DNA of 64,000 nucleotides, taken from positions 1,750,726 through 1,814,725 of the forward strand of contig CBDCFO010000008.1 in assembly GCA_965216215.1 (NCBI GenBank), in the 5' to 3' direction. Position 1 is the first letter of the stretch; each line of letters starts with the position of its first letter. Made by a program: the position numbers and the translations under genes. Of the stretch, positions 18,878 to 55,125 are shown one piece after another. This DNA comes from Bryobacterales bacterium. Lineage in GTDB: Bacteria; Acidobacteriota; Terriglobia; Bryobacterales; UBA6623. The notes below the pieces were generated by a model. The model was not told the DNA's origin. It did no database searches and worked only from the letters and a program-made list of their open reading frames with translations.

Positions 18878-19014
18878 TGCAGGGCATTCTAACCGGTTCC
18901 GGGTCATCGGGGGTCGAGCGCCGGGTCCTCGGGAGGTTGTGATATTCTCGAAACAGTTCGACGGCGTGTAGGCGGCTCGGCTTCGAAACGTAAGTGCCGA
19001 CCACCGCATCATCC

Positions 19015-19755
19015 ATGAATTGCAGTTTCAGCGGCCTCCCGGTCCCAACGGATAAGCTGTTCGTCCTCTACTACCCGCCAGCGGCGGCCCACGAAACGTG
19101 GGACCGTTCGTTCTTCGCTGCGGCGCGCGCGCGCGAGGCGCTGGCGGCGATCGTAGACGAACTCGAGCACTTCTTCCGCCGGTACGTGATCACCGGAAAG
19201 CTAGCCGCCGGCATTGCGGCTTGCTTGCTCGGCATTGCCCTCGGCGCGTACTGGGGAATCTCCGCATGGTCGGATTGGGACGCAATGGGCTCCGCGAGCC
19301 GCTACGGCCTGCCACTGCTTGCGCTTGCCAGCCTGCTTTTCGGACGCTCACGAGTGCGGGCATTCCTGCATCGCTGGAAAGTGTGGCGGGACGAATGCCG
19401 GGAGACGGTCGACAACGAACTCGCCGCGATGCGGCGCGTGATGGAAGGCATACCGACGGATCCGGACGCCGAGGAGGCCGCGGCCATCATGCGCCGCGAG
19501 TGCCCGGACATGGTATCGGCAATTGCGTTTTACGGAACGAACTTCAACGCCTTCACCTACATGGACTTCATCTTGAGCCCGAAGCTGAAGCACCCTTCAG
19601 AGCGCAAGGACCTGCCCGCGCAACACAGCCCGTACCGTGATGCCTACTACGTGGGAGACGTCGTCTACGACAACTGGCGCATGTTCAACAAGGACCACAG
19701 GACCCTTGCCGATCCGCGCTTCGTAGGCAGCCGCGGCCGCCGGGGCGTGATCTAG
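19015..19755 (+). CDS. Hypothetical membrane protein (two TM segments)
   Basis: 246-aa ORF divergent from the cyclase gene; hydrophobic hairpin; host-like codon usage. Confidence 0.6.
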   Translation: MNCSFSGLPVPTDKLFVLYYPPAAAHETWDRSFFAAARAREALAAIVDELEHFFRRYVITGKLAAGIAACLLGIALGAYWGISAWSDWDAMGSASRYGLPLLALASLLFGRSRVRAFLHRWKVWRDECRETVDNELAAMRRVMEGIPTDPDAEEAAAIMRRECPDMVSAIAFYGTNFNAFTYMDFILSPKLKHPSERKDLPAQHSPYRDAYYVGDVVYDNWRMFNKDHRTLADPRFVGSRGRRGVI

Positions 19756-20918
19756 CGGATCGCTTCGCGCAGCGATACCAATGGGTGCTCGCGATCACGA
19801 AGCGGAAAGTCAAGCACGCTGCGCTTCAGCTGCGAGCCGTACACACCCTGGGTCATCTCGACCGTCCAACGCCCGGCCCGCTCGCTGCATGCCGGCTCCC
19901 TGCCCGTCTCGATCGAATCGAGCAAGTCCTCCACCATCAGTGCATTCGCAGTCAGGTGGCGATGATCGCCGAAGCTGCGGTGCTCAGGTTCGATTCGCTC
20001 CCAAGCAACATCCCCGGACGGCACCCATGCAGGGGTCCGCAGGACAAAGGCCCTCGCCTCCCGACTGTAGATCTCGTTGGGCAGAAAGATCCTGCCTTTG
20101 GCACCGTAGATATCGGTGCCGAAGCGCCAGGGATGGGTAGCGCTGGACTGCTTCGAACCGAAGAAACCATGGCGCCCCTCGCCGAACGAGAACATTGCAG
20201 CCATTTGGCGACCGGCGATCGGGCCTATCGGCTCGCTGGGAGTACCTAGGTGGCCGGGGCCAAGCTCCTCACCCTCGGACGTGATGTGGGCGAAGACCCA
20301 CTCCGGATCGCCAAGCACCGCACGCATCATGTCGAAGATATGCGAGCCCAGGACTACCAGGTCCTCACCTCCGGCACGCCGGTCCTCCTTGCCTCGCCCG
20401 CGGACTTCATGGATTTCGCCGATCTCGCCGGCGTCGATCATCTGCAGCGCCTTGAGCGTGAACGGTGACGTCCGCATTTGGTGGGCCACTTGCACTTTGA
20501 CGCCCGCTCTGCGGATCGCATCGACCATCAGATCAGCCTCCGGCAGGGTCATCGCAAATGGCTTCTCGACGTACATGTGGCAGCCCGCTTTCGCCGCGGC
20601 CGCTACCATGTCCAGCCGTTGGTCCGGGTGGCGGGGACAGATACTGACGATGTCAGGCTTCTCCGTCGCGAGCAGTTCGTGGTAGTCGGCGTAAGCCCGC
20701 GCCGCCCGCGTGCGTTCCTTGGCCTCGGCTCGACCCTCCTCGTCAGGATCGGCGACAGCCACGACCTCCGCCTGAGGGAAGGCAGCCCAGACATCGCCGA
20801 TTCCATGGCCGAAATTGCCGCGCCCGGTATGGCCTATCACTCCCACCCGGTACCGCGGCGCGGCGCGAGAAGGGAGTGCCACGGCTGCGGAGGCCAGCAG
20901 AAAGCGCCTGCGTCGCAT
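19752..20918 (-). CDS. Gfo/Idh/MocA family oxidoreductase with Tat signal
   Basis: MRRRRFLL twin-arginine leader; GVIGHTGRG Rossmann motif; HMYVEKPFA. Confidence 0.88.
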   Translation of the reverse strand: MRRRRFLLASAAVALPSRAAPRYRVGVIGHTGRGNFGHGIGDVWAAFPQAEVVAVADPDEEGRAEAKERTRAARAYADYHELLATEKPDIVSICPRHPDQRLDMVAAAAKAGCHMYVEKPFAMTLPEADLMVDAIRRAGVKVQVAHQMRTSPFTLKALQMIDAGEIGEIHEVRGRGKEDRRAGGEDLVVLGSHIFDMMRAVLGDPEWVFAHITSEGEELGPGHLGTPSEPIGPIAGRQMAAMFSFGEGRHGFFGSKQSSATHPWRFGTDIYGAKGRIFLPNEIYSREARAFVLRTPAWVPSGDVAWERIEPEHRSFGDHRHLTANALMVEDLLDSIETGREPACSERAGRWTVEMTQGVYGSQLKRSVLDFPLRDREHPLVSLREAIR

Positions 20919-20959: not shown

Positions 20960-21403
20960 TCACTCGGAGGGATGGACCACGTCCTGGCCCCCGGCCTTCC
21001 AGCCCTCGATCCCACCGAACTGGATCTCGGCGTCGTAGCCGTTGTCTCGAAGTATGGCCGCCGCACGGGAGGCCCTTCCGCCGCGCCGTCAATACGCAAC
21101 GATCGGCTTGTCCCTGGGCACCTCCGCCAAGCGTGCTTCCAACGCATCGATCGGAATATGCGTGTAGCCCTCAATCGCGCCGTCTTGAACGAGCTCTTCA
21201 GGCGTGCGCACGTCCAAGAGGAAGATGTCCTCGCCCGCGGCCAAGCGAGCGGCGACGCCCTCCACATCGAGCTCTGTCGGCTCCGCCGGCGCGATGACTG
21301 CGGCCTCTGGCTCGGCAACGCTGCCTTCTTCGGGCGCGTCCGAGCAACCGAGCGATCCGCAGGCGACAGCCAGGGAAATGCCCATCCAAGGAATTGGTCT
21401 CAT
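20960..21403 (-). CDS. Rhodanese-like lipoprotein, probable selenoprotein (in-frame TGA at 21091-21089 = Sec at the catalytic position), 147 aa
   Basis: LLDVRTPEE...THIP...DKPIVAY-TGA-RRGGRASRAAAILRDNGY...GGIEGWKAGG; the frame stays open to TGA 20962-20960; lipobox SLGC. Confidence 0.8.
21056..21074 (-). promoter_or_regulatory. Candidate bacterial SECIS hairpin
   Basis: GGCC-U-CC-[CGUGC]-GG-C-GGCC, 15-33 nt after the UGA, with a G near the start of the loop; hand-folded only. Confidence 0.3.
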
Positions 21404-21416
21404 ACATTGCCTCCTG

Positions 21417-22310
21417 CTAGGCGTTCCAACCGAGGGTCGACGCTTCCGGAATTCTCCGGATCAGGTCCGAGAGTTCAATCTGGTTTTCTGCTCCGATCGT
21501 GAAGCAATCGATGCAGTCGAGCGCCATGGCGTGCTGCAGGGCCTCGCTGACCCGGTCCCGCATGACACCCTCTCCCAGGATCTTCATGCCGATCACGCCC
21601 TTGCCCGCAGCCTTGATCTTGCAGAGTTCTTCCACGACGGTCGCAGGATCGGCATCCATGCGAGCGCCGATCGGGTTGATCCTCGCCAGATCAACATCAA
21701 TGAACTCCTGGCGATGCACTTGCCTCAGGGCCGGGAGAGAGTGGCAAGAAATCCCGCGTGACCTGACGATCCCCTTCTGCTTGTACTCGTCAACCACTTC
21801 CATCGCGCCCTGCCGCTGGACAGGCCAGTCTTCTTCACGCACGGCGTGTAGCAACAGCAAGTCGATGTAGTCCGTGCCCAGCTCCCGGCGGAAGCGATCA
21901 ATATCCTCGCGCATCCCCTTGGCTGTCTTGGATACCGACTTGGTCATGATGACAACCCGTTCCCGGGGAATGTGCTGCAGCGCGCTCTTCAGATGGGGGT
22001 GGCTGCCGTACATGTCCGCCGTGTCCCAGAAGGTCAAGCCATTGTCGAAGCCGTACCGATAGAGATCCGTAAGCCCGCCAACACCGAGCTTGCGCGTCTG
22101 GTTGGAGGCGCCTCGGAAGCCCTTGGTCCCTGTCCCCATGGCAAGCCTCGATACCGGCAACTTGTCCGGACCCAGCGTCACGGCATCGTAGGCGAACCGG
22201 CGAGCGGGATTCTCGGTATATCCGTCCGAAGCTCCGAACAGCTGCTGCTGGACGGCTGCAATCGATGTCCCTGCGAGCAGGGTGTGGCGGATGAAATCGC
22301 GTCGCTTCAT
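21417..22310 (-). CDS. Aldo/keto reductase with Tat signal
   Basis: MKRRDFIR leader; SRLAMGT, FWDTADMYG, LGTDYIDLLLLH, GVIGMKILG. Confidence 0.88.
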   Translation of the reverse strand: MKRRDFIRHTLLAGTSIAAVQQQLFGASDGYTENPARRFAYDAVTLGPDKLPVSRLAMGTGTKGFRGASNQTRKLGVGGLTDLYRYGFDNGLTFWDTADMYGSHPHLKSALQHIPRERVVIMTKSVSKTAKGMREDIDRFRRELGTDYIDLLLLHAVREEDWPVQRQGAMEVVDEYKQKGIVRSRGISCHSLPALRQVHRQEFIDVDLARINPIGARMDADPATVVEELCKIKAAGKGVIGMKILGEGVMRDRVSEALQHAMALDCIDCFTIGAENQIELSDLIRRIPEASTLGWNA

Positions 22311-22387: not shown

Positions 22388-23083
22388 CTAGGGGCGGAGG
22401 TCGAACGCTGCAAGTAAGGCGCGATCTCGGGCGCGTGCCGCGCGGGGGAATCCCATTGGGTTGTATTCGTCCCGGAACACCACCTCGAACTCGGCACATT
22501 CCCGCCGCAAAGCCTCTTCGGTCGGAAACTCGAGCAACTCGGTCCGGATCCATCGCTCGACCAGGGAAGTGTCCAGACCGAAGCCGGAGAGGTACTCGTC
22601 GCGCCGTCTCGCCATCAGCCAGACCGCAGGCAGCAGGTATCCGCGGAACGGCCGGCGGCCCAAGGCAAACTCCCCGAGCATGCGGTCGCTCATACGCTGT
22701 AGCCGCAGCTGATTGAGTTCAGCAGGAGTGCACATGTCGAATTCCTGACGGCCGCAGTAGCGGGCGTCGTGCCAGACATGGCAAGCGCGACAGGCATCCG
22801 GCCGCGACCCATAGACCTGGCACTCGCCGCCAGCCAAGTACACGCACGGCCCGAGGTCCAGCAGACTGTTCAGGTCCGCATCAGGAGACAGGCGTCCCGC
22901 TGCCGACTCGACCGCTTCCGCAAGCTCAGGAGCGTCCTGGACTAGCGCGAGCGCCTCCGGGGATGAAATGATCACCGTCATGCGCTCGCAGCACGCAGAG
23001 CACCCAGGCGCGCAAGTCGGGCGCCCGATCGTGGCCTCCCACGATCGCAGGAGCTGGCCAATCGCAACGTCGATCGCGCTCAA
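22388..23083 (-). CDS. YkgJ-family cysteine-cluster (putative Fe-S/Zn) protein
   Basis: CAPGCSACC, CVYL...CQVYGSRPDACR. Confidence 0.75.
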   Translation of the reverse strand: MSAIDVAIGQLLRSWEATIGRPTCAPGCSACCERMTVIISSPEALALVQDAPELAEAVESAAGRLSPDADLNSLLDLGPCVYLAGGECQVYGSRPDACRACHVWHDARYCGRQEFDMCTPAELNQLRLQRMSDRMLGEFALGRRPFRGYLLPAVWLMARRRDEYLSGFGLDTSLVERWIRTELLEFPTEEALRRECAEFEVVFRDEYNPMGFPRAARARDRALLAAFDLRP

Positions 23084-23544
23084 CGGGCAGGCGAGACCTT
23101 GAGATTGCGGTAGTGCGCGACAGTCGAGCCCTCAAGCCAGAGTGCCACCTTCCCGGTCGCCCCGGCTCCGGACTTCACGTCGTTCACGATCAGTGTCGGC
23201 TGGTCAGCCCCGTTGACATAGAGCCGCGCTTTCTCGCCATCCACGACAATCTTGACCGGAATCCATTCACCCGGCACGATGTCGGCGTAAGTCTCGTACT
23301 TGCTGGGAGTCTCGCTGCGAAAGCGGTACCAGGTCCAATCCGGGTGCGAGATGTATTGCACCGTATGGTTGCGTCGCTCCTGGTCGTCGGCCCGGCCGTT
23401 GGTGGGCCTTAGATAGAAGCAATCGTAGTTCTTGTGGTCGTCCTGCAACCGCCAAGCGATTCCGACGAACCCGCGGGCGCCCTGCTGCGTCCCGGGAGCG
23501 GGCTGGCCGGAAACCTCGACTTCAATCGTGCCGTTGCCGAACTC
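23080..23544 (-). pseudogene. DUF1080-like (3-keto-disaccharide hydrolase-like) gene, 3' part
   Basis: FGNGTIEVEV...GFVGIAWR...FYLRPTNGRADDQERRNH; joins the 5' part in frame once the 12-kb insertion is removed. Confidence 0.85.
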
Positions 23545-23610
23545 AGAGGTGGTCCGGGGATTTGGACCACACGCTAAGGTGGACTTCGTCAAGGTTGAAA
23601 GGAGTCAACG

Positions 23611-23892
23611 ATGGCGAAGAGACGGACGTTCACGGCGGCGTTCAAGGCGAGGGTGGCGAAGGAAGCGTTGCGCGGGGACCGAACCGTGCAGCAGATCGCA
23701 GCCAAGCACGAACTGCATCCGAACCAGGTGAGCCAATGGAAGCGCACGGCCAGCGAGAGACTGGCCGAATTGTTCGAGCGGGCTGCCGGGCCCGGTCAGG
23801 ATGAGCGGGAGGCGGAGGTCCGCAAGCTGCACGAGAAGATCGGGCAGTTGGTGGTCGAACGGGATTTTTTGAAGCGCGCGTGGGAACGCTGA
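23611..23892 (+). CDS. IS3-family transposase OrfA (HTH)
   Basis: RRTFTAAFKARVAKEAL...HPNQVSQWK; GGAG RBS; slippery heptamer T TTT TTG at 23865-23871. Confidence 0.9.
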   Translation: MAKRRTFTAAFKARVAKEALRGDRTVQQIAAKHELHPNQVSQWKRTASERLAELFERAAGPGQDEREAEVRKLHEKIGQLVVERDFLKRAWER

Positions 23893-24734
23893 GCCGGACC
23901 ACGCGCAAGAGCTTGGTGCAGAGAGACCACCCGCAGGCGAGTCTGCGCCTGCAATGCCGGTTGCTGGGGGTGTGTCGGTCCGGGCTGTACTACCAGCCGC
24001 GGGAGGCGGATCCGGACCAGCTGGCGCTGATGCGGCGGATGGACGAGTTGTACACGGCGCATCCGTTTTACGGGACGCGGCAGATGAGCCGGCATCTGCA
24101 ACGGGAAGGCTATCCGGCCGGCCGGGACAAGGTGCGGCGGCTGATGCGCAAGATGGGCTTGGAGGCGGTCTACTGCAAGCCGCGCACGAGCCAGCCGGAT
24201 CCGGAGCACCGTGTCTATCCGTACCTGCTGCGGAACCTGGCGATCGAGCGGCCGCACCAGGCGTGGTGCGCAGACATCACCTACATTCCGATGCAGCGGG
24301 GATTCCTGTACCTGGTGGCGGTGATGGACTGGTTCAGCCGGGCGGTGCTGAGTTGGGCACTGTCGAACACACTGGACACGGAGTTCTGCCTGCTGGCGGT
24401 CGAGGAGGCGCTGGAGGGGTTCGGTCCGCCGGAGATCTTCAACACCGACCAGGGCAGCCAGTTCACGTCGCGGGCGTTCACGGGCTGTCTGGAAGCGGCC
24501 GGCGTGCGGGTGTCGCTGGATGGACGGGGCCGCTGGATGGACAACGTGTTCATCGAGCGGCTGTGGCGGTCGCTGAAGTACGAGGCGGTGTACTTGCAGG
24601 AGATGCCGGACGGGTTCGCGGCGCGCGCGGTCATCGGGGACTGGCTGGCGTTCTACAACCGGACCCGGCCGCATTCGGCGCTGGCGGGGAGGACGCCGTG
24701 GGAAATGCTGCCAGCGGGCAGCAGGCCGCGATGA
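23880..24734 (+). CDS. IS3-family transposase OrfB (DDE), -1 frame to OrfA
   Basis: WCADITY, FNTDQGSQF, DNVFIERLWRSLKYE, YNRTRPHSAL. Confidence 0.92.
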   Translation: MGTLSRTTRKSLVQRDHPQASLRLQCRLLGVCRSGLYYQPREADPDQLALMRRMDELYTAHPFYGTRQMSRHLQREGYPAGRDKVRRLMRKMGLEAVYCKPRTSQPDPEHRVYPYLLRNLAIERPHQAWCADITYIPMQRGFLYLVAVMDWFSRAVLSWALSNTLDTEFCLLAVEEALEGFGPPEIFNTDQGSQFTSRAFTGCLEAAGVRVSLDGRGRWMDNVFIERLWRSLKYEAVYLQEMPDGFAARAVIGDWLAFYNRTRPHSALAGRTPWEMLPAGSRPR

Positions 24735-25104
24735 GAGTGCGTGTGCGGGGTGCTGGCTGGGCCGGACGCCAACCGGCGGGCCGGAGAGGTCGGGCCGGAC
24801 GGGACCGCCTCGTTGTTCGGCACGCGGACGGCCCGCTGGTGCGCATGCCTCCGCTCGCGCTGGCGGAGAGAGTGCCGAGTGGACGCGAGATCGGCATGCA
24901 ACCAAAGGAGTTATGCGTGTCCGGGCGGCTCGGTTGCGGGCTCCATGCAACTGCATTCCAGCAATTGCGCCGACCCGCGCATGCAGGCCCCCCGCTGTTT
25001 GCTGGAACACCCGGACAAGCGCCACGGGTGTACGGCCGGAGACGTGGTAACGTTACCTGTTGCAGTGGCATCGGCCGCGGAGCGAGGAGGCGGAAGGAGA
25101 CGGC

Positions 25105-25442
25105 ATGGCCTTGCCGAACGCAGAGAAGCAACGGCGCTAGCGGGAGGGAGACCGGCCGGTCCGCTACCGCCGCCCGCAGGACCGGCGTTCGAATGCCCGG
25201 CGCGGGAGGGAGACCGGCCGGTCCGCTACCGCCGCCCGCAGGACCGGCGTTCGAATCCGCAACGCTGGCGCGACGCGGTGGCGGCCTTGGTGCAGTTGCA
25301 GGAGCACTATGGGGAGTGGCTGGAGAGCCTGCCGGAGAGTCTGCACGGGACGCCGCTGGGGGCGAAGCTGCGGGTGCTTAGCGAGGTGGAGCTCGACGAG
25401 TTGCAAGCCGTCGAGCCGCCGCTGGGCTACGGGCGGGACTGA
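25105..25442 (+). pseudogene. Passenger gene 1 (small basic/helical protein), inactivated
   Basis: GGAG RBS + MALPNAEKQRR, then TAG at 25138-25140; a 62-bp tandem duplication shifts the frame; intact-looking C-half RWRDAVAALVQLQ...EPPLGYGRD. Confidence 0.6.
25140..25256. repeat. 55-bp direct repeat x2, period 62 bp
   Basis: GCGGGAGGGAGACCGGCCGGTCCGCTACCGCCGCCCGCAGGACCGGCGTTCGAAT at 25140-25194 and 25202-25256. Confidence 0.95.
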
Positions 25443-25445
25443 GCG

Positions 25446-25694
25446 ATGAGGCTGCAGGCGGGCAGTGGGGGCTGGTTTGCCGCCGGCGAGGGGTGCGAGC
25501 GGGCGCTGCGGAGATTGAGCGATCCGGCGTTCAAGGTGTTGGCGTACGTGTGCCTGCGGGCCGAGCGGGCCAGCGGGTGGCTGGAGTTCGAGAGCAGCGG
25601 CTTGGCGCGGGAGTTGGGCAGGAGCCGTGCGAGCCTGGGACGCTGCCTGCGCGAGCTGGTCAGCCAGGGGATCTGCGAACTGGAGGCGGCCCCC
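25446..25694 (+). pseudogene. Passenger gene 2 (HTH-like protein), 5' part, interrupted by IS21
   Basis: LARELGRSRASLGRCLRELVSQGIC helix-turn-helix-like segment; continues in frame at 31210 after removing IS21 (ELEAAP|NQHRG). Confidence 0.75.
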
Positions 25695-26028
25695 TGTCCA
25701 GCGACAACTATTCTTGCCGGTGGCGACAACTAGAATTGCCGGTTGTGCTCCGTAAGTTGGAGGGCGGCAGAGGGAGCCCGAAGGGCGACCAATGCAGCCC
25801 TCGGATAGTAGCAGAGGGAGGGGGTAGCAGGGGGAAGCGCAGCCTCCCCCTCTCTGGGAGAGCAAGGCAGTCGGCAGTGCGAGAGGGGCCAGGGGGCGAG
25901 CCCCCTGGCCCGGAATTCGGCGCCGTTGGTCGGCTGCTTTTTTGGCGATCGTGTGACCGCCATAGCGGGGAAAGCGCGCGCGCTGTGGAACCGCCCCGGC
26001 TGGAGGCATTGCTGGAAGCGCTGCACGG

Positions 26029-26799
26029 CTACCTCTTCTCGCTTGCCTCGCCCTGGCGCCGGCGCGCTTGCTCGGCCCGGTAGCTGGCAATATCGAGTTC
26101 CAGAATCACCGAGTGGTGCACCACCCGGTCGACCGCCGCCGCCGCGGTCATCTTGTCAGGGAAAATGCTCTGCCATTGCGAGAAGACCAGATTGCTCGTC
26201 AGCATCACGCTGCGGCGCTCGTAGCGTTGCGCCAGCAGTTCGAAGAGCACTTCCATCTCGGCACGGTCCTGCCGGACGTAGCCGATGTCGTCGAGCAGCA
26301 GGCACTCGAAGCGGTCGAGGCGGTCGAGCTCGCGGCTCAGCCGTAGTTCGCGCTTGGCCCCGGCCAGGCGCTCGGTCAGCGCGCGCGCCGGGGCGAACAG
26401 CGTCGAGTGGCCACGCTGCACCAGTTCGGCACCCAGCGCCGCCATCAGATGGGTCTTGCCCGCGCCCGGATTGCCGAAGACACACACATTGACGGCGTCG
26501 GCCAGGAAATCCCCCTCGCACAGCACTGGCAGGCGGCCCCTCACGCCTTTGGGAAGACGCAGCAAGTCCAGCGTTTCCAGCGTCTTGCCCCGCGGCAGCC
26601 GGGCTTCCTTGGCCAGTCGCGCCACGCGCCGGTCGGCCCGCTCGACCGTCTCGACCGCGGCCAGTTCCGCCAGGTAGCGCAACGGGTCCCAGGCCTGCTT
26701 GCGGGCCTGTTCCGCCAGCCGTTCGCAATGCGCCGCGAACGACGGCAGGCGCAACTCCTTCAGGCGTCCTGGCAGCGCTGCCAGCTCCGGCCCCTTCAC
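26029..26799 (-). CDS. istB: IS21 helper ATPase IstB
   Basis: Walker A GNPGAGKT, Walker B LLLDDIGY, LTSNL, AAVDRVVHH. Confidence 0.93.
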   Translation of the reverse strand: MKGPELAALPGRLKELRLPSFAAHCERLAEQARKQAWDPLRYLAELAAVETVERADRRVARLAKEARLPRGKTLETLDLLRLPKGVRGRLPVLCEGDFLADAVNVCVFGNPGAGKTHLMAALGAELVQRGHSTLFAPARALTERLAGAKRELRLSRELDRLDRFECLLLDDIGYVRQDRAEMEVLFELLAQRYERRSVMLTSNLVFSQWQSIFPDKMTAAAAVDRVVHHSVILELDIASYRAEQARRRQGEASEKR

Positions 26800-27837
26800 G
26801 ACAGCCCCCGCGTGTCCGCCAGCAACTCGTCGTAGACGTCCAGGTCTGGTTCCGCGATGCGCACCTCCGGCGCCTCCGGCCGCGGCGGTGCCGCGGCCGC
26901 CCGGACGCGCTCGAACGACGGCCGCTCGCCAGCCTCCAGGCAGCCCTGCAGGGCCGCCTCCACACGGGTCTCCAGCGTCGTCGCCGCCAAGTGCAGGATG
27001 CGCACGTACTCGAGATCCGCGTGCCCCTGCGAGCGCCCCTCGCAGAGCTTGTCATAGGCCCGCCGGAAGGCCTCTGACGGAAACATCTCCTCGCGGTAGC
27101 GGTATTGCGCGAAGGCCCCCGGCTTGCGCAACAGCGCGTGCGCCACGTGCCGGTAGTCCACCCGGCCCGGCTGCTTGCCCAGCGCCCGGTCGTGGCGCGC
27201 CACCAGTTTCCCGCCGTAGTGCAATTCGACGCGATCGGTGTACAGCCGCGCCGTCAGCTGCTCCCCGATCAGCCGCGACGGCACCGAGTACGCCTTGCTC
27301 GCCACCCGCACCACGCTCCCGCGCGTCACCGTGCGCCGCTCTTCCCGGTACACCGGCAGCCGCCGCGGCGGCAGCGGCCGCAACGCCGCCTGCTCCGCCG
27401 CCAGCCGCTCCCCGCGCCGGCTGTTGCGCTGCCCGGCGATCTCGTCCAGCAACCGCGCGTAGCGCTCCACGGAACTGAAATCGCGTGTCCCGCTCAGGCG
27501 CAGCCGCTGGTCCACCGCGGTCTTGAAATGCCCGTGCGCCGCTTCCACGTCCCCGTTCTCGTGCGCGTTGCCCGGATAGTTCCGGCTCGCCGCCAGCCCG
27601 TAATGCGCCAGGAACTCCTCGTACGCCCGGTTGAACGCCCGCCCGCCGGACTGGCGCAACTCGTGCGTCGCCGCCGACAGATTATCGGTCCGGTGCTCCC
27701 GCGGCACCCCGCCCAGCTCCCACAGGCTCTCCTGCAGTCCGCCGACCAGCGCCTCGAACGTTTCCGAGCTCGCGATCGCCACGCTCTCCCAGTTCGAGTA
27801 CGGCAGCACGAAACGGTATACCAGGTGCTTGTACCGC
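26796..27837 (-). pseudogene. istA: IS21 transposase IstA, 3' part
   Basis: HLVYRFVLPYSNWE, RTDNL, ENGDVE; joins the 5' part in frame across the TSD (GERY|KHLVY). Confidence 0.9.
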
Positions 27838-27854
27838 CTAGCGACCGGACACAC

Positions 27855-27884
27855 TTGACACTGGCGCGGTGTTCTGTGTAGAAC
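27855..27884 (+). promoter_or_regulatory. Probable transposase promoter inside the IS4 left end
   Basis: TTGACA (27855-27860), 18-nt spacer, TAGAAC (27879-27884), just upstream of the GTG start. Confidence 0.5.
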
Positions 27885-27891
27885 GGGGGTA

Positions 27892-30201
27892 GTGCGGGTA
27901 GGGCTGCGCATTTTCCGTCCGCAGACGATCGCTTGGCTGCGAGAGGCATTACAGCTGGGCCAGCTGTCGCGGGCGGCCCTGGGTCGCGGGGTATGCGAGC
28001 GGGAGGACTGGCGCAACCCCAAGGGCGAGTATTGCACGGCCTCGGCGCGCAAGGTGCTGCCCGAGCTGGCCGGCCAGCTGGACCTGCCGCTGCCGCCGGC
28101 CCAGCCGGGTCCGCCCGCCTGCCGCCCGCGGTCCAGCCCGGACCCGCCCGTGCCGTCGACCGGCTTCACCGGCTCGCTGGCGGAACTCGGCGAGGTCCGC
28201 GTGCGTCTGGCCACCTCCGAGGCGGAGCGGCGGCTGTGCGCCGGACTGCTCGACCAGCACCATCCGCTGGGCCCGGGCCGGGCCCCCGGCTGTCGGCTGA
28301 GCTATCTGCTGGCAGCCGATTGCGGGCCGCTGGGCGTGCTCTCGTTCGTGGCGGCAGCGTTCCGGCTGGGGCCGCGCGATGCCTTCCTGGAGTGGGACGA
28401 CCGCACGCGCGGAGCGCACATCGAGCGGATCCTCAGCAACGACCGCTTTGTGCTGGTCCCGGGCGTGCAGGTCCCGAACCTGGCCTCGCACGTACTGGGG
28501 AAGACGATCAAGAGACTGGCCCGGGACTGGGAGCAGGCGCACGGAGTGCGGCCCTGGTTGGTGGAGACCTGCGTGCAAAGTTCGCGACCGGGCACGAGTT
28601 ACAAGGCGGCCGGCTGGCAGTGCGTGGGACCGACGCAGGGGCGGCCGCCGGGAGCGGGCGAGGCGGTGGAGACGAAGGCGGTCTGGCTGCTGGGTTTGGA
28701 TGCGAACTGGCAGCAGCAGCTGTGCCGGAAGCCGGAGCAGAAGCTGGGGCAGTACCCGGAGTTGGTGCTGGACGAGGAGGCGAACTGGGCACGGCGGGAG
28801 TACCTGCGTTCGGACCTGCCGGACGGGCGGCTGCGGCAGCGGCTGGAGCGGCTGGGGCAGAGCTGGGAGCGGCATCCGGGGGAGGATCTGCCGGCAATCT
28901 TCCCGCACCAGGGGGAGCTGCGGGCGGCGACGCGCCTTTTGCACAATGACAAGGTGCAGGATCGGGATATCTTGCAGCCGCACCGGGAGGCGTTGCTGGA
29001 GCGGGTGCAGGTGGAGTCGACAGTGTTGCTGGTACAGGACACGACGACGCTGAACTACACGAACCTGCAGGGTTGCACGAGCGGGTTGGGGCCGTTGCAG
29101 GACCGCGCGAGCAGTTCCCGGGGGCTGTTCGTGCACGCGACGGTGGGGTTCACGGAAGGCGGGCGTCCGCTGGGGGTGAGCGGGCTGGAGCGGTGGGCGC
29201 GGCCGGAGCAGGAGCCGGACCCGGAGGCGGAGCAGGAGCAGGAGAAGGAGAGCCGGCGCTGGTTGCGGGGGTTCGAGCAGGGTCAGGAGTTGGGGCGGGA
29301 GAGTCCGCAGGCGCGGGTCGTGGTGGTGGGGGACCGCGAGAGCGACATGTTCGAATTGTTCGAGCGGCAGGCGGAGCGGACGGAGGAAGCCGGGTTGCTG
29401 GTGCGGGTGCACTTGGGGCGGCAGCGCAAGGTGCGGGCGTGGGACGCGGCGTTCCGCTCGGAGATGATCCGGCCGATCGAGGCGCAGCCGGACTTCGAAG
29501 AGGCGGTGGTGACGGGCCGCAAGGTGGAGATCGAGTCGCAAGGGGGGCAGCGGGCGCGGCAGAAGCGGACGGCGGTGACGGAGATCCGGATCGGGCGGGT
29601 GGAGTTGCTGCCGCCGAAGGGGCGGGCCGGAGCGGTGGCGCCGGTGCCGGTGTGGCTGGTGCGGGTGCTGGAGCCGGACCCGCCGGCGGGGGAGGAGGCG
29701 TTGGAGTGGCTGCTGCTGTCGAGTGAGGGGGGGCGGACAGCGCAGTGGGCGGAGCGCATCGTGAGCTGGTACGAGCGGCGCTGGGGGATCGAGGAGTATT
29801 TCCGGCTGCTCAAGACGGGGACGCGGATCGAGGACCGGCGGTTGCGGGACGCGGAGGCGCTGGGCAAGTGCCTGGTGTTCGACGCGATCACGGCCTGGCG
29901 GGTGTTCAGCCTGGACCGCTACGCCCGGGACGCGCCGGACACGCCGGCGGAGGAGGTGCTCACGGCGGACGAGATGGCCGTGATCGAGGGCGTGACGGAG
30001 ACGGAGCGGTTGCGGCCGCCGCGGGAGCGGGGCCAGCCGGTGGGACCGGGCATTCGCAGTTGGGTCGTGCTGCTGGCGCGCATGCGGGGCTGGCGTCCGA
30101 AGAAGCACCGGGAACTGCCGGGGAACGAGGTGCTGTGGAAGGCGTACCAGCAACTGCAAACGATGGTGCGCTATCGGCAGGCGCTGCGAGGACCGCCGTA
30201 G
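27892..30201 (+). CDS. DUF4338 (DruA-like) domain fused to an IS4/Tn5-type DDE transposase, 769 aa
   Basis: N-part QHHPLG...LSNDRFVLVPGVQVPNLASHVLG...VETCV...YKAAGW...GPTQGR; C-part QDTTTL, VGDRESD, YERRWGIEEYFRLLK (YREK). Confidence 0.85.
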   Translation: MRVGLRIFRPQTIAWLREALQLGQLSRAALGRGVCEREDWRNPKGEYCTASARKVLPELAGQLDLPLPPAQPGPPACRPRSSPDPPVPSTGFTGSLAELGEVRVRLATSEAERRLCAGLLDQHHPLGPGRAPGCRLSYLLAADCGPLGVLSFVAAAFRLGPRDAFLEWDDRTRGAHIERILSNDRFVLVPGVQVPNLASHVLGKTIKRLARDWEQAHGVRPWLVETCVQSSRPGTSYKAAGWQCVGPTQGRPPGAGEAVETKAVWLLGLDANWQQQLCRKPEQKLGQYPELVLDEEANWARREYLRSDLPDGRLRQRLERLGQSWERHPGEDLPAIFPHQGELRAATRLLHNDKVQDRDILQPHREALLERVQVESTVLLVQDTTTLNYTNLQGCTSGLGPLQDRASSSRGLFVHATVGFTEGGRPLGVSGLERWARPEQEPDPEAEQEQEKESRRWLRGFEQGQELGRESPQARVVVVGDRESDMFELFERQAERTEEAGLLVRVHLGRQRKVRAWDAAFRSEMIRPIEAQPDFEEAVVTGRKVEIESQGGQRARQKRTAVTEIRIGRVELLPPKGRAGAVAPVPVWLVRVLEPDPPAGEEALEWLLLSSEGGRTAQWAERIVSWYERRWGIEEYFRLLKTGTRIEDRRLRDAEALGKCLVFDAITAWRVFSLDRYARDAPDTPAEEVLTADEMAVIEGVTETERLRPPRERGQPVGPGIRSWVVLLARMRGWRPKKHRELPGNEVLWKAYQQLQTMVRYRQALRGPP

Positions 30202-30648
30202 CAGCCCGCGCCGGGGCGGGCGGGGAGTGTCTGGTGGAACGGCATCCGCCGGTTCTCCGCAGGGGGCCGTCAGGGGGGAGTGCAGAACTCTCCCATGGAG
30301 GCACTGTCGTGGGCAGGGAAGCTTCTCGCCAGGGCTTGATGCGTGCCGCGTGTCGGGAACACCTTGGCGCAGCTCGAAGTCTGCCCGCTGTTCCCCAGTG
30401 ATCCGTTTTCCCAACCAATGCGTGACGGCCGAATGGGACCCATTCGCAACGCAATGACCGGAATGGCAACGCTGGCCGTGCAGCCCCAACCCGGTTCCGC
30501 CCGATGCGTGCGTCTGTCGTGCTGCGCTGGTCTCCCTCGTCTCGCCCCCCAGTATGCGGGCGGCCCATCCGGCACCATCAAGACCGAATGTGAGCATCAA
30601 TCCACGATTGCCTCGAAACTTCCAGCATCAACTATGTCCGGTCGCTAG

Positions 30649-31109
30649 TTGTACCGCTCGCCCCGGATCGTCACCCCCAGCGCGCCCATGTCGGTGAAGT
30701 CCGACTGGCACTGCGCCCCCGGCTCCCGCTCCTGCTCGAAATAGACTTCCCGGTCCGGACCCTGCCGCACGCGCCAGGCCCGGAATCGCCGCTGCAACGT
30801 CCGCAACTGCCCGGACTGCAATTGCCCCGGATGGCGCCGCTGCAGCTCCTCGAACACCACCTTCGCCTGCAGCCCCGGGTCCGCTCGCAGCAGGGCCTCC
30901 GCCTCTGGCCACAGCGCTTCCAACGGATCCTCCCGCGTCCGCCAGTGCCGCGCTGGACTGGGGTCGCTCGGAAGCTTCCCGCTATCGCGCCATTTGCGAG
31001 CCGTGCGCTCGCTCATGCCCGCTTTCGCCGCCGCCGTTGCCAGCGGCTTGTTCCTTCTTAGTTCCTTCATCAGTAGCCTCACTTGTTGGTTTTTGATCAA
31101 CGCCTCCAC
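30649..31109 (-). pseudogene. istA: IS21 transposase IstA, 5' part
   Basis: AAAKAGMSERTARKW HTH, WRTREDPL, LRTLQRR, QSDFT. Confidence 0.9.
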
Positions 31110-31203
31110 CCTCCCTGGGAAGGGTCGAGTCTAGCCGCCAACTACGAGGCTCACCCGGAACTTTTAATTGTCGTTACCCGGAATTTCTAATTGTCGCTGG
31201 ACA

Positions 31204-31743
31204 GCCCCCAACCAGCATCGCGGTTCGCGCTTGCGGGTGCGGGAGGAGTACTGGCCCTACGAGGGCCGGACGGAGGCGGCGGCGCGGACCGCGGCAGGTG
31301 CGGCCGGGGAGGTGGGTGCGTATGTCGAGCGGGTGCGGGAGATGTGCAGCAAGCCCGCCTGCGTGCAAGCTGGATTCGGGCCCGCCGACGAGCGTCTGGC
31401 GGCGGACTGGCAGCGAGCCGGGGTGAGTCTCGAAACGGTGCGGCGGGCGATCCTGCTGGGCAGCGTACGGCAGTTGACGAGCATGATCGACCGGCCTGGG
31501 AGCGAGCCGGTCCGCAGCCTGCGCTATTTCGCCGGTCTGGTGGAGGAAGTGCGCCAGGAGAGGCTGTCCGCTGGTTGCTGGAAGCACTTGGAGATCTCAC
31601 TCGAGCGCTGCGAACGGTACTGGCGGTCGCGGACCGAGCAAGTTGCGGGGCGTGCCTGTTCAGATTTGGACCAAGCAGCCCCTCTCGGAGGGGGCGAGAT
31701 CCCCTCAGCGGTCAAGCAAGAGCAAGACGAGCAGACGGGATGA
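31204..31743 (+). pseudogene. Passenger gene 2, 3' part
   Basis: PNQHRGSRLRVREEYWPY...VRRAILLGS...RSLRYFAGLVEEV; in frame with the 5' part. Confidence 0.75.
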
Positions 31744-31766
31744 TGATGATCTCCAATTGAGGTACA

Positions 31767-33777
31767 GTAGAGTCGGGGAGCGACGCGCGCACCTTAGCAA
31801 AGAGGCAGTAGCCGTTTGGGAGTAGTCCTACGGCTTTCGCCATGTGTAGGTGCCTCACTGGCCCTCTCGCCTAGCCACGTTTCCGCGCCCCGCTCGTCAA
31901 ACCGGACGTGCGGCTTTCCCGCATCCGGCTTTCAGTGCAGATCATGCCTTCGCCCACGGAAGGCTCTTGGTCGTCTGCGTCAGGCGCACGAGGCCGTACT
32001 CACCGTACAGCCGGGCGTCCGGGAACAGCACGTATTGCCCGGACTTCACCTTGTGTTTCCGACAGAGCCACTGGCGCAGCCGCCGGACCGCGTGGCGGTC
32101 AATCGCGTTGTACGCCGGACTCACCTGGCCCAGATGGAAGTAGTTCGCCCATCCGGTTAGGCACCGGTTCAGGCGTTCTACCATTTCCTCCCGGGTCAGT
32201 TGCCCGCTCCTCGGCGATGTCCGCTCGCTGATCTTGCGGCAGATGCTCTGGACGCTAGCCTTGCTTGGGCGGGTGCCGATATACGGTCCTTTCCCGCTGG
32301 GCCTGTAGTTGCGTCCTATGCGGTATCCGAGGAACTCGAACGGCTCCTCCGGGCACCGCAGGCATCGGGTCTTCCGTTCGTTGACCGGCAGTTTCAGCTT
32401 CCGCATCAGCCGCTGGACTTCCTCGAGCATTGCTGCTGCCGGAGCCCTGCCGAGCACGCAGAAGTCATCCGCATAGTTCACGATCTCCGCTCGGAAGCGC
32501 TCGGCGTGTCCCCGCACCTTCCAGCCCAGGATGAAGCGCCGCATGTAGAGGTTGCTGAGCAGAGGCGAGATCGGAGCCCCTTGCGGGGTCCCTTTCCGTG
32601 CCTGCCTCGCCCGGTTCGTGCGGTGTTTGCCGCCCTTGCCGTCATCCTCCTCCACGGCCATCTCCAGCCACGCCTTGACTAACCCCAGCAAGCGCCCGTC
32701 GCTCACGCGTCGGGCCACGCTCCGGAGCAGTTCGGCGTGCGGGATCTCTCCGAAGTAATTCGACAGATCGCCGTCAACCACTTCATTGCATCCCTTCCTC
32801 AGCAGGCTGTGGACGCGGCTCACCGCGTCGTTCGCGCTGCGTCCCGGCCGGTAGGCGTGCTGCTCCGGTTGCAGGTCCGCTTCGATGATCGGTGCCAGCA
32901 CCAGCAGGGCTGCCGTCTGCGCTACCCGGTCCCGGATGCAAGGTATGCCCAAGGGCCGGAACTTGCCGGGCTGCTTCTTCGGGATCAGCACCTGTCGCAC
33001 CGGTTGCGGTGCGTAGGTGCCGTCCTGCAGCTCCCTTGCCAGTTCCCCGAGCCACGCTTCCGCCCCTCGCTCCTCGATGTCGACGAAGCTCTCCCGGTCC
33101 ACTCCAGCACTGCCGCCGTTCCGGCGGACCTGCGCCAAAGCCTCCCGCAGGATATCCTCCCGCCACATCTTGTCGCTCAGCGCATGGAACCGTCGCCCCG
33201 GTTCTTCCTTCGCTTTCGCATGTAGCACGGTCTGGAGTTTCCGAACCCTAGCTGGCCCTGTTAGACGTTCGTCAGTGGCCATGCCTTGCCTCCTTTCCGT
33301 ACCTCTCTGCACTCAAGGCCCCTTCCCTCCACGGGCATTACCCCGCCTCTGCGGTAGTACGGGCCTATCCGCCACCCTGCCCGGCCCGGCCTGCCCCTCG
33401 CGGGGCTCCGGTTGATGCGTGCTGCATCACCGGCAGGGCTTCCCGTGTTGCTGCTTCCTTCCTCTTCCATGCGTGCCAGCGCCATTACCCCGGCGGGCGC
33501 GGGTCGGTGCCTGTGACGCTCTCTTCCCAACCCGCCGTCGGCCTTCCCCCTAATCACGAAAGGGTCGGCTCCCGCGTTAAATGTTTCGAGGCCTGCTCGG
33601 CGTTCACTCGCGTTCTAGCCCGCATGCTCGCTGAGCCGCCCAAGGCGGCCCTTTGACACCAGAGTGCTTCAGCCCATTTCGTTACCTCCATGAACCGCCC
33701 TGGCTGCTACCAGCCGGAGCATCAGTTGCTGGACGGGATTCGCACCCGCTGAATGGAAGCGCCTTTCCACGGCGCAC
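31767..33777 (-). mobile_element. Group II intron (2,011 nt) with RT/maturase
   Basis: 5' end GUGCG (33777); domain V AAGCCGGAUGCGGGAAAGCCGCACGUCCGGUUU; domain VI ending CCCCGACUCUAC (31767). Confidence 0.93.
31942..33282 (-). CDS. ltrA: Group II intron reverse transcriptase/maturase (no endonuclease domain)
   Basis: RPLGIPCIRDR, GTPQGAPISPLLSNLYM, YADD, FEFLGY, domain X LTGWANYF; ATG 33282 behind AGGAGG. Confidence 0.93.
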   Translation of the reverse strand: MATDERLTGPARVRKLQTVLHAKAKEEPGRRFHALSDKMWREDILREALAQVRRNGGSAGVDRESFVDIEERGAEAWLGELARELQDGTYAPQPVRQVLIPKKQPGKFRPLGIPCIRDRVAQTAALLVLAPIIEADLQPEQHAYRPGRSANDAVSRVHSLLRKGCNEVVDGDLSNYFGEIPHAELLRSVARRVSDGRLLGLVKAWLEMAVEEDDGKGGKHRTNRARQARKGTPQGAPISPLLSNLYMRRFILGWKVRGHAERFRAEIVNYADDFCVLGRAPAAAMLEEVQRLMRKLKLPVNERKTRCLRCPEEPFEFLGYRIGRNYRPSGKGPYIGTRPSKASVQSICRKISERTSPRSGQLTREEMVERLNRCLTGWANYFHLGQVSPAYNAIDRHAVRRLRQWLCRKHKVKSGQYVLFPDARLYGEYGLVRLTQTTKSLPWAKA

Positions 33778-33886
33778 GCAGTTCTCAATTTGGCCTTTTT
33801 CTATCTCGCGAGCCGCTGAGGGGCCGGTAGCAAGGGACCAGTTTCTGGGGGCTTAACTTTGCGGACACCGCTTTCAAACATAAAAT

Positions 33887-43173: not shown

Positions 43174-43361
43174 TGAATGACTCCCCCCGGCTTGATGCGA
43201 CGGGGCATCGCCGGACGGGGCGGCCGGAAAGCTAGTGCAAGTGGCCACGGGGGTTTCATGCTGCCGGAACTCCCGATTGTAGGCCCCGCAGCACGAAGCG
43301 GTCGGACATGCCGATCGTCGGCTTCGGCTGGAACCGCGGCGGTACACTGAGAAAAGCTCGA

Positions 43362-52036: not shown

Positions 52037-52136
52037 TCACTCCTCGGTTGCCCTGCGTCGCGATGCATGTCGGGGAAAGCGAGCCTCCAGTCGAGTCCCC
52101 GGTGATGTCTGGTCGTCCGATGGTCACAGCAAGAGG

Positions 52137-52865: not shown

Positions 52866-52879
52866 CGCTACTCCTCCTG

Positions 52880-55042: not shown

Positions 55043-55125
55043 CCTCAGGGCCCCTCTGACCGGGCAAATGGAGCGCCCACCTGCCTCTTGCTGCCGGTGG
55101 TCATCGTAGGCCTCTCCGACACTCC

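Follow-up and report, generated by a model that had tools for sequence, protein, structure and literature searches.

The gene and its surroundings

On the minus strand of the window, by which is meant the whole 64,000-nucleotide stretch of Bryobacterales DNA that was analysed, an open reading frame starts at an ATG (21403-21401), meets its first in-frame TGA at 21091-21089 after the residues ...DKPIVAY, and then stays open for a further 42 codons (RRGGRASRAAAILRDNGYDAEIQFGGIEGWKAGGQDVVHPSE) until the true stop, a second TGA at 20962-20960 (Table 1). An earlier note on this DNA had described a frame ending at PIVAY* and a 42-codon continuation, and both are present at these coordinates; its description as a whole, which comprised the frame, a TGA at a Cys column and a hairpin, matches what is found in the sequence. 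The gene belongs to a conserved minus-strand cluster of five, made up of genes for a 3-keto-disaccharide-hydrolase-like protein, a CxxCxxCC protein, a Tat-type aldo/keto reductase, the rhodanese, and a Tat-type Gfo/Idh/MocA oxidoreductase. The aldo/keto reductase gene adjoins the rhodanese gene in 32 of 36 loci of the TGA-bearing (Sec-type) form, and the Gfo/Idh/MocA gene is present in 30 of them. No promoter- or terminator-like site was seen within the cluster, and the aldo/keto reductase and rhodanese genes are probably co-transcribed. Genes of selenium or sulfur metabolism were not found near the rhodanese gene, the neighbours being periplasmic-type sugar or carbonyl oxidoreductases, so that the gene context favours no particular substrate. 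The same window also holds a MopB-FeS-NrfD cluster, about 30 kb from the rhodanese gene.

In this window of 64% GC there are 347 TGAs with at least 40 codons before and at least 25 after them, among which the rhodanese TGA alone has convincing coding composition on both flanks; that its position is not random is nevertheless a matter of comparative evidence and not of the single sequence. No further convincing TGA-interrupted coding frame emerged from a screen of the window and of 51 loci. Codon reassignment is excluded, for TGA serves as a normal stop across the window, ending 16 of its 41 long ORFs, the rhodanese gene among them.

Table 1. Features of the rhodanese locus (window coordinates)
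Feature	Position	Strand	Basis or remark
Complete gene of the proposed Sec-rhodanese	20960..21403	-	147 codons plus stop; proposed Sec at codon 105; same architecture in 36 orthologues
Predicted signal peptide and lipobox, residues 1-20, MRPIPWMGISLAVACGSLG-C	21344..21403	-	Cys20 conservation; PROSITE PS51257-type pattern
Acidic Ala/Pro/Glu-rich tether, residues 21-44	21272..21343	-	Composition; links the putative lipid anchor to the domain
Rhodanese homology domain, residues 50-137, split by the UGA	20993..21256	-	PF00581, 4.6e-14; PDB rhodanese alignments
In-frame UGA at the catalytic-Cys position, proposed Sec codon	21089..21091	-	Codon 105; TGA in 37/37 clade members and 13/13 third-subclade contigs
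Proposed SECIS hairpin, nt 18-36 with the U of the UGA as nt 1	21056..21074	-	Silent-site entropy; compensatory changes; folding
GAAG...CUUC lower-stem extension, window-specific	21049..21078	-	MFE structures; missing from most aligned relatives
Shine-Dalgarno-like AGGAGG	21410..21415	-	Sequence; 6 nt 5' of the ATG, 1 nt past the TAG of the upstream aldo/keto reductase gene
Aldo/keto reductase, N-terminal twin-arginine-like motif MKRRDFIRH...	21417..22310	-	PF00248; upstream, gap 13 nt
Gfo/Idh/MocA oxidoreductase, twin-arginine-like N-terminus MRRRRFLLA...	19752..20918	-	PF01408, PF22725, PF02894; 41 nt past the true stop

The rhodanese domain and its catalytic position

With Cys put in place of the TGA, the translation matches PF00581 at 53.1 bits against a gathering cut-off of 22.2, over model positions 5-101 of 102 and across the TGA, which bears out the claim that the codons downstream complete the domain; an alpha/beta rhodanese fold is predicted from sequence homology. 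In alignments to solved rhodanese domains the TGA column coincides with the catalytic Cys of 3NTA/4OCG and 3TP9, with GlpE, PspE and Sud among the further matches to solved structures, and the TGA stands opposite TGC or TGT in the 21 homologues of the Cys type for which an active-site motif could be located. The placing of the UGA at the rhodanese catalytic Cys, as first proposed, is thus upheld by structures and homologues alike. The loop, U-R-R-G-G-R followed by A-S, is of the six-residue sulfurtransferase type C-x-x-G-x-R and not of the seven-residue phosphatase type. Sec would be the sole redox-active residue of the mature protein, which has no other Cys, and an intramolecular redox cycle of the CxxU type is therefore not available to it.

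Conservation of the UGA and selection on the downstream frame

The TGA occupies the catalytic column in all 36 close Bryobacterales species (GTDB species representatives), which together with the window gene make up the 37 genes of the Sec-type clade, and again in 13 of 13 contigs of a third subclade, drawn from several samples. At the same column 15 genes of a sister clade have TGC, and Cys-type homologues occur also in Chloroflexota and other groups. The TGA form is found on complete chromosomes, among them OZ242259.1, OZ241997.1, OZ242276.1 and OX638379.1, and a 3.45-Mb contig has the same gene as the window. In a neighbour-joining tree (100 bootstraps) the branching among the Sec subclades, three in number, and the Cys clade had 11-58% support only.

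A lone sequence with an in-frame stop would look the same if it were a nonsense-mutated pseudogene or if the TGA were a sequencing or assembly error, and the labelling of the relatives at NCBI as short hypothetical proteins would fit such a reading. The comparative data have already refuted it, and its remaining probability is close to nil: the 36 species keep TGA and frame intact at protein identities down to about 60%, and dN/dS downstream of the UGA is 0.24 (dS 1.06; codons +12 to +36), with 0.13 upstream. The earlier note had envisaged that reads might show TGC or TGT, or that no other TGA-bearing orthologue might exist; what was found is the same TGA with the same flanks in five independent assemblies, and orthologues bearing it in every one of the 36 species and in the 13 contigs besides.

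It could also be argued that function rests mainly or wholly on a truncated protein of 104 residues, the 42 codons being either a remnant or a small ORF with its own start. Every gene caller stops at the TGA, and in two subclades the UGA is followed by an AUG, at which one caller annotated a 42-residue ORF. A protein that ended at the UGA, however, would have no active-site loop and would miss the final quarter of the Pfam model. Across at least 37 species, moreover, the downstream frame is open, of constant length (41-50 codons from the UGA to the true stop in all 37 genes) and subject to purifying selection, and the codon that follows the UGA in the clade of the window gene is CGG, which is no start codon. 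A truncated functional product is accordingly regarded as highly improbable. The alignments show a conserved UGA followed by a frame that, to judge from its substitutions, is translated under selection.

The same habit of gene callers explains why the public records of the family are truncated at the Sec codon. In the public collection some 90 protein clusters, formed at 90% identity, end at ...P[IV]V[AT]Y or ...PVAVY; this widespread rhodanese lipoprotein family, which also takes in at least 36 species-level genomes, is on record only as hypothetical proteins of 100-110 residues, and among NCBIfam models none was found for it.

A candidate SECIS element downstream of the UGA

The GC hairpin that had been claimed 15-33 nt downstream of the UGA exists (GGCC-U-CC CGUGC GG-C-GGCC, with a U.C mismatch; -8.7 kcal/mol), and it is selected as RNA, as both nucleotide-level constraint and compensatory base-pair changes show. 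Its stem is of 7 bp and its loop, CGUGC, contains an invariant G26 and U27, and one common SECIS core, CCCGUGCGG, is found in the three Sec subclades. In the Sec genes the silent sites of codons +6 to +11 have an entropy of 0.09 bits, compared with 1.47 bits at other codons (Mann-Whitney p = 6.5e-5); in Cys-type genes the corresponding values are 1.27 and 1.09 bits, and the freeze is thus limited to Sec genes. Compensatory changes, which represent a few clade-level events and not many independent ones, are seen at three of the seven stem pairs: pair 18-36 is GC, AU, UG, CG or GU across the sequences, pair 21-33 is CG, UA or UG, and the U.C mismatch at 22-32 becomes UA, GC or UG. The covariation of the hairpin is 0.217 compared with 0.107 in shuffles, none of 500 of which reaches that score, and 88% of the hairpin cells are paired as opposed to 42-59% in slid controls. 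The counterparts of this region in Cys-type genes form other and weaker folds (-3.6 to -6.2 kcal/mol).

Folding of single sequences gave no stability above that of shuffled GC-rich sequence, and with Z-scores that are not significant in such a context the hairpin cannot be upheld on thermodynamic grounds alone. Searched against Rfam at E up to 10, the region gave no SECIS family, only a spurious lncRNA match; the lack of a family match is expected, as Rfam-type families cover the SECIS elements of bacteria poorly. The RNAalifold consensus prefers a competing hairpin at nt 6-29 with its loop at nt 15-19. This alternative fold, which may still form in the window's own clade, is nearly invariant and hence uninformative; it has zero covariation and loses three consecutive pairs in one relative (L086), and the hairpin at 18-36 is preferred to it, since that one explains all six frozen silent sites and shows the compensatory changes.

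The geometry of the 18-36 hairpin is similar to that of the SECIS of E. coli fdhF, in which G23 and U24 of the loop contact SelB; G26 and U27 are their counterparts here. Working criteria for bacterial SECIS elements call for a stem-loop right after the UGA with a small apical loop that contains a G (PMC1088965), and the hairpin has both this position and such a loop.

Selenocysteine machinery in the order

Searches for the Sec machinery close to the gene were negative: ARAGORN found no tRNA in the window and no tRNA-Sec in 36 related loci, Pfam scans found no SelA, SelB or SelD among 40 ORFs of the window, and tblastn with the SelA of Solibacter usitatus found no match in about 1.55 Mb of related-locus DNA. 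S. usitatus, a member of the same order, has SelA, SelB and a Sec-containing FdhA (PMC1794560). A homology search with its SelA gave abundant homologues, the matches listed being close soil relatives at 72% identity or more, and three of those listed are Bryobacteraceae or Acidobacteriia MAGs by source naming. As far as these genomes indicate, the Sec trait is documented at the level of the order. A search of the literature found nothing on Bryobacterales with selenocysteine or with sponge symbionts.

It has to be considered whether the UGA could be read without any Sec machinery, by a near-cognate tRNA (Trp or Cys) at low efficiency and with the aid of the hairpin, in which case the UGA would serve as a translational throttle. 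A UGA followed by C, the arrangement in the main clade, is a leaky context in E. coli, a hairpin downstream of the UGA, such as is present here, can stimulate read-through in other systems, and the Sec machinery has been seen at order level only. The leaky context is not conserved, however, for the UGA is followed by A in two subclades; the spacing of the hairpin and its small G/U loop are of the bacterial SECIS type, the order has the Sec trait, and Trp at the catalytic position would mean a dead enzyme. The UGA also falls exactly at a catalytic residue at which Cys and Sec are exchangeable, a signature of selenoproteins (PMC1088965). Near-cognate read-through is for these reasons considered very unlikely, and the residue inserted at the UGA is most plausibly Sec.

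Export, proposed function and significance

The N-terminus of the protein points to a lipoprotein. Cys20 (GSLGC), the candidate for lipidation, is kept by at least 90% of the homologues in an alignment of 50; Cys15 (LAVAC) also satisfies the lipoprotein pattern. The distance from the lipobox Cys to the domain is 21-35 residues across homologues. Of the 37 Sec-type genes, 32 fit the PROSITE PS51257-type pattern, in agreement with the earlier note's assignment of a membrane-anchored protein, but so do 10 of 15 Cys-type relatives, and the description of such an anchored form as unusual was overstated. From these features the protein is predicted to be held by a lipid anchor on the periplasmic side of the membrane.

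The reading preferred here, to which a probability of roughly 85% may be given, is that 21403-20960 encodes a 147-residue single-rhodanese lipoprotein in which the catalytic UGA is read as Sec. On meeting the UGA at codon 105, with the 19-nt hairpin beginning 15 nt beyond it, the ribosome would be served by SelB, which would bind the hairpin through a CGUGC loop with its invariant G and U while carrying Sec-tRNA(Sec), and Sec would be inserted in place of termination by RF2; translation would then supply the loop U-R-R-G-G-R and the final 42 residues. The precursor would be exported via the Sec translocon and its lipobox Cys lipidated, an acidic linker of about 25 residues tethering the domain at the periplasmic side of the membrane. 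By analogy with the family, the protein would catalyse sulfur transfer: thiosulfate, polysulfide, a persulfide or a similar donor would give up a sulfane sulfur to the selenolate, and the resulting Se-S intermediate would hand it on, with a thiol, sulfite or cyanide as the acceptor.

Two wider readings are more speculative and, on balance, unlikely. The Sec-rhodanese may act within the five-gene cluster as a lipid-anchored selenium redox or persulfide relay for exported oxidoreductases, which, if true, would extend the periplasmic role of selenium beyond the cases of formate dehydrogenase, hydrogenase and Dsb-like proteins. It is also conceivable that Sec is the ancestral state of the lipoprotein family and that several replacements of Sec by Cys followed; one Sec subclade has a LysR/HpcH neighbourhood in common with Cys-type genes.

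The picture of selenoproteins as a class is left unchanged by this gene. A corrected annotation would give these acidobacteria one more selenoprotein and one more requirement for selenium. The close Sec-type and Cys-type versions of one exported sulfurtransferase, together with a compact SECIS candidate supported by covariation, amount to a natural experiment, and such Sec/Cys pairs could show what is gained from selenium, be it a higher rate of sulfane transfer or, in an oxidising compartment, protection against over-oxidation.

Comparison with known rhodaneses

Sec-rhodaneses themselves are already known as a predicted group, dating back to 2005, and a rhodanese-related sulfurtransferase is listed in the Sargasso Sea and GOS selenoproteomes; the gene of the window adds to this established type a member that had escaped annotation. 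As in those predictions, Sec takes the place of the catalytic Cys, a SECIS-like hairpin with a small G-bearing loop follows, and Cys-type homologues are abundant. A 2026 review distinguishes forms 1-5 of Sec-containing rhodanese-like proteins, of which forms 2 and 4 have a UxxG motif and are represented by MBM9537886.1 and MCY3690685.1 (PMC13188914). The U-R-R-G of the present protein fits the class of PF00581 with UxxG, a likeness to forms 2 and 4 that is one of motif alone. The Sargasso sequence AACY01016424 (...IYTYuQAGVRAAH...), assigned to COG2897, differs from the window protein in its loop and flanks, and the accessible descriptions of predicted Sec-rhodaneses do not mention a lipoprotein or periplasmic location, unlike that predicted here. 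NCBIfam NF041203 (rhodanese_LYCAU, form 3) likewise comprises single rhodanese domains with Sec members, but the window protein scores 22.8 bits against a cut-off of 115 and has UxxG where that family has CxU, and it was not assigned to it.

Among rhodaneses with Cys, the PspE of E. coli (2JTQ) resembles the window protein in being small, exported and made of a single domain, and in having one catalytic chalcogen residue and a loop of six residues, which in PspE is CNAGRQ. The alignment to PspE covers residues 63-133 of the window protein, whose scores against the PspE models NF007627 and TIGR02981 (33.1 and 27.3 bits) stay below the cut-offs of 102 and 126, and membership was rejected. PspE is a periplasmic thiosulfate sulfurtransferase that is soluble and uses Cys, whereas the window protein would be a lipoprotein that uses Sec. 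The periplasmic polysulfide-sulfur transferase Sud of Wolinella succinogenes (1QXN) has the same type of fold and aligns over residues 45-139 (E = 1.8e-8); it is a precedent for the delivery of sulfane sulfur in the periplasm to a membrane enzyme. Sud is soluble, uses Cys and has polysulfide reductase as its partner, while no such partner adjoins the window gene. The best matches to solved structures (E = 4e-13 to 1e-9) are 3NTA/4OCG, the NADH-dependent persulfide reductase of Shewanella, the metallo-beta-lactamase-rhodanese 3TP9, whose loop CRTGGRS is close to the URRGGRA of the window protein, and BpPRF, 5VE3. In all of these the rhodanese is a cytoplasmic fusion domain with Cys; in the window protein, by contrast, it is a stand-alone domain, predicted to be exported and to carry Sec.

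Reading frame and protein

The ATG of the rhodanese gene is preceded by AGGAGG, and beyond the in-frame TGA at codon 105 the frame runs on for 42 codons (RRGGRASRAAAILRDNGYDAEIQFGGIEGWKAGGQDVVHPSE) before the true stop. When Cys is substituted at the TGA, residues 50-137 match Pfam Rhodanese over model positions 5-101 of 102; this match spans the TGA, so the domain is complete only with read-through. Alignment of the protein with solved structures places its TGA column at the catalytic Cys in the 3NTA/4OCG and 3TP9 rhodanese domains, and further matches include GlpE, PspE and Sud. The active-site loop, U-R-R-G-G-R, has the six residues of the sulfurtransferase type and is closest to CRTGGRS of 3TP9.

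Residues 1-20 form a predicted signal peptide ending in a lipobox, and at least 90% of homologues share its Cys20. The PROSITE-type lipoprotein pattern is found in 32 of the 37 Sec-type genes (the window gene and 36 close relatives with TGA at the catalytic column) and in 10 of 15 Cys-type genes, most failures being near misses. An Ala/Pro/Glu-rich tether of 21-35 residues separates lipobox and domain. The mature protein has no Cys beyond the lipidated one in any pattern-matching Sec-type gene except the window gene and L041, a related locus, each with two candidate lipobox cysteines; with no further Cys, Sec would be the sole redox-active residue. The earlier note had given the gene's coordinates, its frame, the TGA at the catalytic Cys and the 42-codon continuation exactly, and its proposal of a lipoprotein agrees with the lipobox data.

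Features of the window
Feature	Position	Strand	Remark
253-residue ORF	18994-19755	+	overlaps Gfo/Idh/MocA gene end by 4 nt
Gfo/Idh/MocA oxidoreductase	19752-20918	-	twin-arginine-like N-terminus; 41 nt downstream of rhodanese
Rhodanese gene	20960-21403	-	147 residues
True stop TGA	20962-20960	-	42 codons beyond in-frame TGA, same frame
Hairpin	21074-21056	-	nt 18-36 from U of UGA; formed by frozen stretch
In-frame TGA, codon 105	21091-21089	-	ORF list halts here after ...EVPRDKPIVAY
Start ATG	21403-21401	-	read from sequence
AGGAGG	21415-21410	-	ahead of ATG; read from sequence
Aldo/keto reductase	21417-22310	-	twin-arginine-like N-terminus; 13 nt upstream of rhodanese
CxxCxxCC-domain gene	22388-23083	-	same tight row as rhodanese
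3-Keto-disaccharide-hydrolase-like gene	23080-23592	-	same tight row as rhodanese
rve-type integrase	23880-24734		mobile-element block
IS21-type IstB	26029-26799		mobile-element block
769-residue protein	27892-30201		mobile-element block; DruA, Tnp_DNA_bind and DDE domains
Group II intron reverse transcriptase/maturase	31942-33312		mobile-element block
DDE transposase	33887-35215		mobile-element block
Topoisomerase-RecQ fusion	43308-47597	+	1429-residue single ORF; domain matches
Four-gene row	50717-55632	-	~30 kb from rhodanese

Conservation of the UGA codon

The single sequence by itself does not set the feature apart from chance, as the window (64% GC) holds 347 TGAs with long open stretches on both sides and single-sequence folding gives the hairpin downstream of the UGA no stability beyond that of shuffled sequence; the decision comes from the comparative data. 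About 90 clusters of 94-111 residues, all ending in ...P[IV]V[AT]Y or ...PVAVY, came up in a protein search, together with full-length homologues of 143-163 residues that carry Y-C-M-R-G-G-R-A-S. An orthologue scan with one genome per species yielded 79 loci, among which the Cys column is TGA in all 36 closest (all labelled Bryobacterales or Terriglobia MAGs), followed by the conserved continuation R/M-R-G-G-R-A-S-R-A..., and TGC in the next 15. A further 13 contigs yielded a third Sec subclade (...PVAVY-U-M/Q-R/M-GGRASRAE...).

A nonsense pseudogene is rejected on these comparative data, both the conservation of the TGA and the constraint beyond it: the downstream segment measures 41-50 codons in 37/37 Sec-type genes, with a dN/dS of 0.24 at a dS of 1.06 (0.13 upstream), and is translated and under selection. 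Sequencing error is likewise rejected, since the window's exact gene, with identical TGA and flanks, is present in five separate assemblies, and reassignment of the codon fails because TGA ends 16 of the 41 long window ORFs, the rhodanese gene included. The comparison of relatives shows the UGA to be read through, and the probability that it is a genuine Sec codon is put at roughly 0.85.

The Tyr codon at -1 (window 21092-21094) is TAT in 37/37 Sec-type genes and 13/13 of the third subclade, and 14 of the 15 Cys-type genes use TAC. Such a synonymous preference, outside the hairpin and just before the UGA, suggests that recoding depends on the local sequence context.

A candidate SECIS element

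Codons +6 to +11 (GCC UCC CGU GCG GCG GCC) are nearly without synonymous variation in the 37 Sec-type genes, with a mean entropy of 0.09 bits versus 1.47 at comparable four-/six-fold codons elsewhere (p = 6.5e-5), whereas in Cys-type genes the same amino acids are encoded freely (1.27 versus 1.09 bits). The frozen stretch forms a hairpin (G18-C36, G19-C35, C20-G34, C21-G33, a U22.C32 mismatch, C23-G31, C24-G30) closed by the loop C25-G26-U27-G28-C29, and each of the six silent positions is either paired in the stem or is the loop U. The third Sec subclade shares the core CCCGUGCGG with the window's clade and keeps the loop, while 18-36 becomes A-U, U-G or C-G, 21-33 becomes U-A and the 22-32 mismatch becomes U-A (G-C in two main-clade genes). 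Among 25 distinct sequences, 3 of the 7 pairs show double changes, 88% of cells are paired versus 42-59% with partners slid, and the covariation score is 0.217 versus 0.107 when shuffled (0/500 shuffles as high), a statistic not to be over-read because it reflects a handful of clade-level events, although its direction is clear. A competing hairpin at nt 6-29, the choice of RNAalifold, is disfavoured: its pairs do not covary, and in L086, a third-subclade locus, it is disrupted.

The hairpin resembles the E. coli fdhF element, in whose loop G23 and U24 contact SelB. It also has the features used in selenoproteome surveys, namely a stem-loop soon after the UGA and a small loop with a G (PMC1088965). 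Altogether this putative SECIS is unusually well supported by the alignments; the earlier note had pointed to a hairpin with a G-containing loop downstream of the UGA, now borne out by the silent-site freeze and compensatory changes. The other TGA-containing orthologues whose absence that note named as a refutation exist in the 36 closest loci and the 13 third-subclade contigs.

Proposed mechanism and Sec machinery

SelB carrying Sec-tRNA(Sec), recruited by the hairpin, would insert Sec at codon 105, and the protein, given its signal peptide and lipobox, would be exported and lipidated, with the flexible acidic tether holding the domain at the periplasmic membrane face. Following family chemistry, the selenolate would take up sulfane sulfur and pass it, through a Se-S intermediate, to a thiol, to sulfite or to cyanide as acceptor; there is about an even chance that periplasmic sulfane-sulfur transfer is the specific function. 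The lack of a partner Cys rules out a thiol/selenol redox cycle within the molecule. A selenenic-acid route is possible, like the DsbA-bypass activity reported for PspE.

The Sec machinery is the weak point of the case. The window has no tRNA genes at all, a Pfam scan of 40 of its ORFs found no SelA, SelB or SelD, no tRNA-Sec was found in the 36 related loci, and SelA was not found in 1.55 Mb of fetched related DNA. In the related loci ARAGORN reported a 92-nt tRNA-Arg (anticodon GCG; L009 417-508), unusually long for a bacterial tRNA-Arg. The trait is documented for the order: in the supplements of a 2006 bacterial selenoproteome study (PMC1794560), SelA, SelB and two FdhA proteins with Sec are recorded for Solibacter usitatus. 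The protein collection contains more than 120 close relatives of this SelA, of which the three with organism names are Bryobacteraceae or Acidobacteriia MAGs.

Genomic context

The rhodanese lies in a tight five-gene row, and a search inside the row turned up no promoter- or terminator-like site. The flanking aldo/keto reductase recurs in 32/36 and the Gfo/Idh/MocA gene in 30/36 Sec-type loci, and both in none of the Cys-type loci; this conserved order may be mere shared descent. The 253-residue ORF, without a match in the Pfam scan, adjoins the cluster in 30/36 Sec-type loci. The third-subclade gene is flanked by a LysR regulator and an HpcH/HpaI aldolase, an arrangement also seen for four Cys-type genes, and this shared neighbourhood, together with the SECIS core in common with the window's clade, implies at least one Sec/Cys switch within the family, whose direction a bootstrapped NJ tree leaves unsettled. 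No neighbour in the row or in the LysR/HpcH loci is indicative of sulfur or selenium metabolism.

A dense mobile-element block (23611-35215) lies just upstream of the cluster. In L081, another assembly with the same strain-level rhodanese gene, a DruA/Tnp_DNA_bind gene lies on the opposite side, past the Gfo/Idh/MocA gene and its 246-residue neighbour, so insertion sites differ among close relatives. Elsewhere, the 1429-residue ORF combines Toprim, type IA topoisomerase and RecQ-type helicase domains (DEAD, Helicase_C, RecQ_Zn_bind, HRDC). The four-gene row encodes a multihaem cytochrome c3/c7-like protein (168 aa), a molybdopterin-oxidoreductase-family subunit (720 aa), a 4Fe-4S dicluster protein (248 aa) and an NrfD-type membrane subunit (439 aa), and looks like a quinone-interacting module of the Psr/Qrc/alternative-complex-III type.

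Relation to known Sec-rhodaneses

On the comparative evidence the rhodanese gene is a real, well-supported and previously unannotated selenoprotein gene. NCBI entries for its relatives are hypothetical proteins of 105-108 residues (MDE0108075.1, MDE0104337.1), and the best 120 matches in a collection of 5.8 billion proteins, where a full-length Sec-clade entry would outscore truncated ones, include none. The window protein attains no NCBIfam cut-off, scoring 22.8 bits against NF041203 (cut-off 115) and 33 against PspE (cut-off 102).

The gene belongs to an already-known kind and is no surprise in that respect; its rhodanese family has Sec-type and Cys-type sisters side by side. Rhodanese-like proteins with Sec in place of the catalytic Cys have figured among predicted selenoproteins since the Sargasso Sea (2005) and GOS (2008) surveys, and a 2026 review (PMC13188914) describes five Sec-rhodanese forms, two with a UxxG motif. 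The Sargasso sequence AACY01016424 (YuQAGVR), assigned to COG2897, is clearly of a different family. The URRG of the window protein fits the UxxG motif, and the protein is possibly the same as form 2 or 4 of that review.
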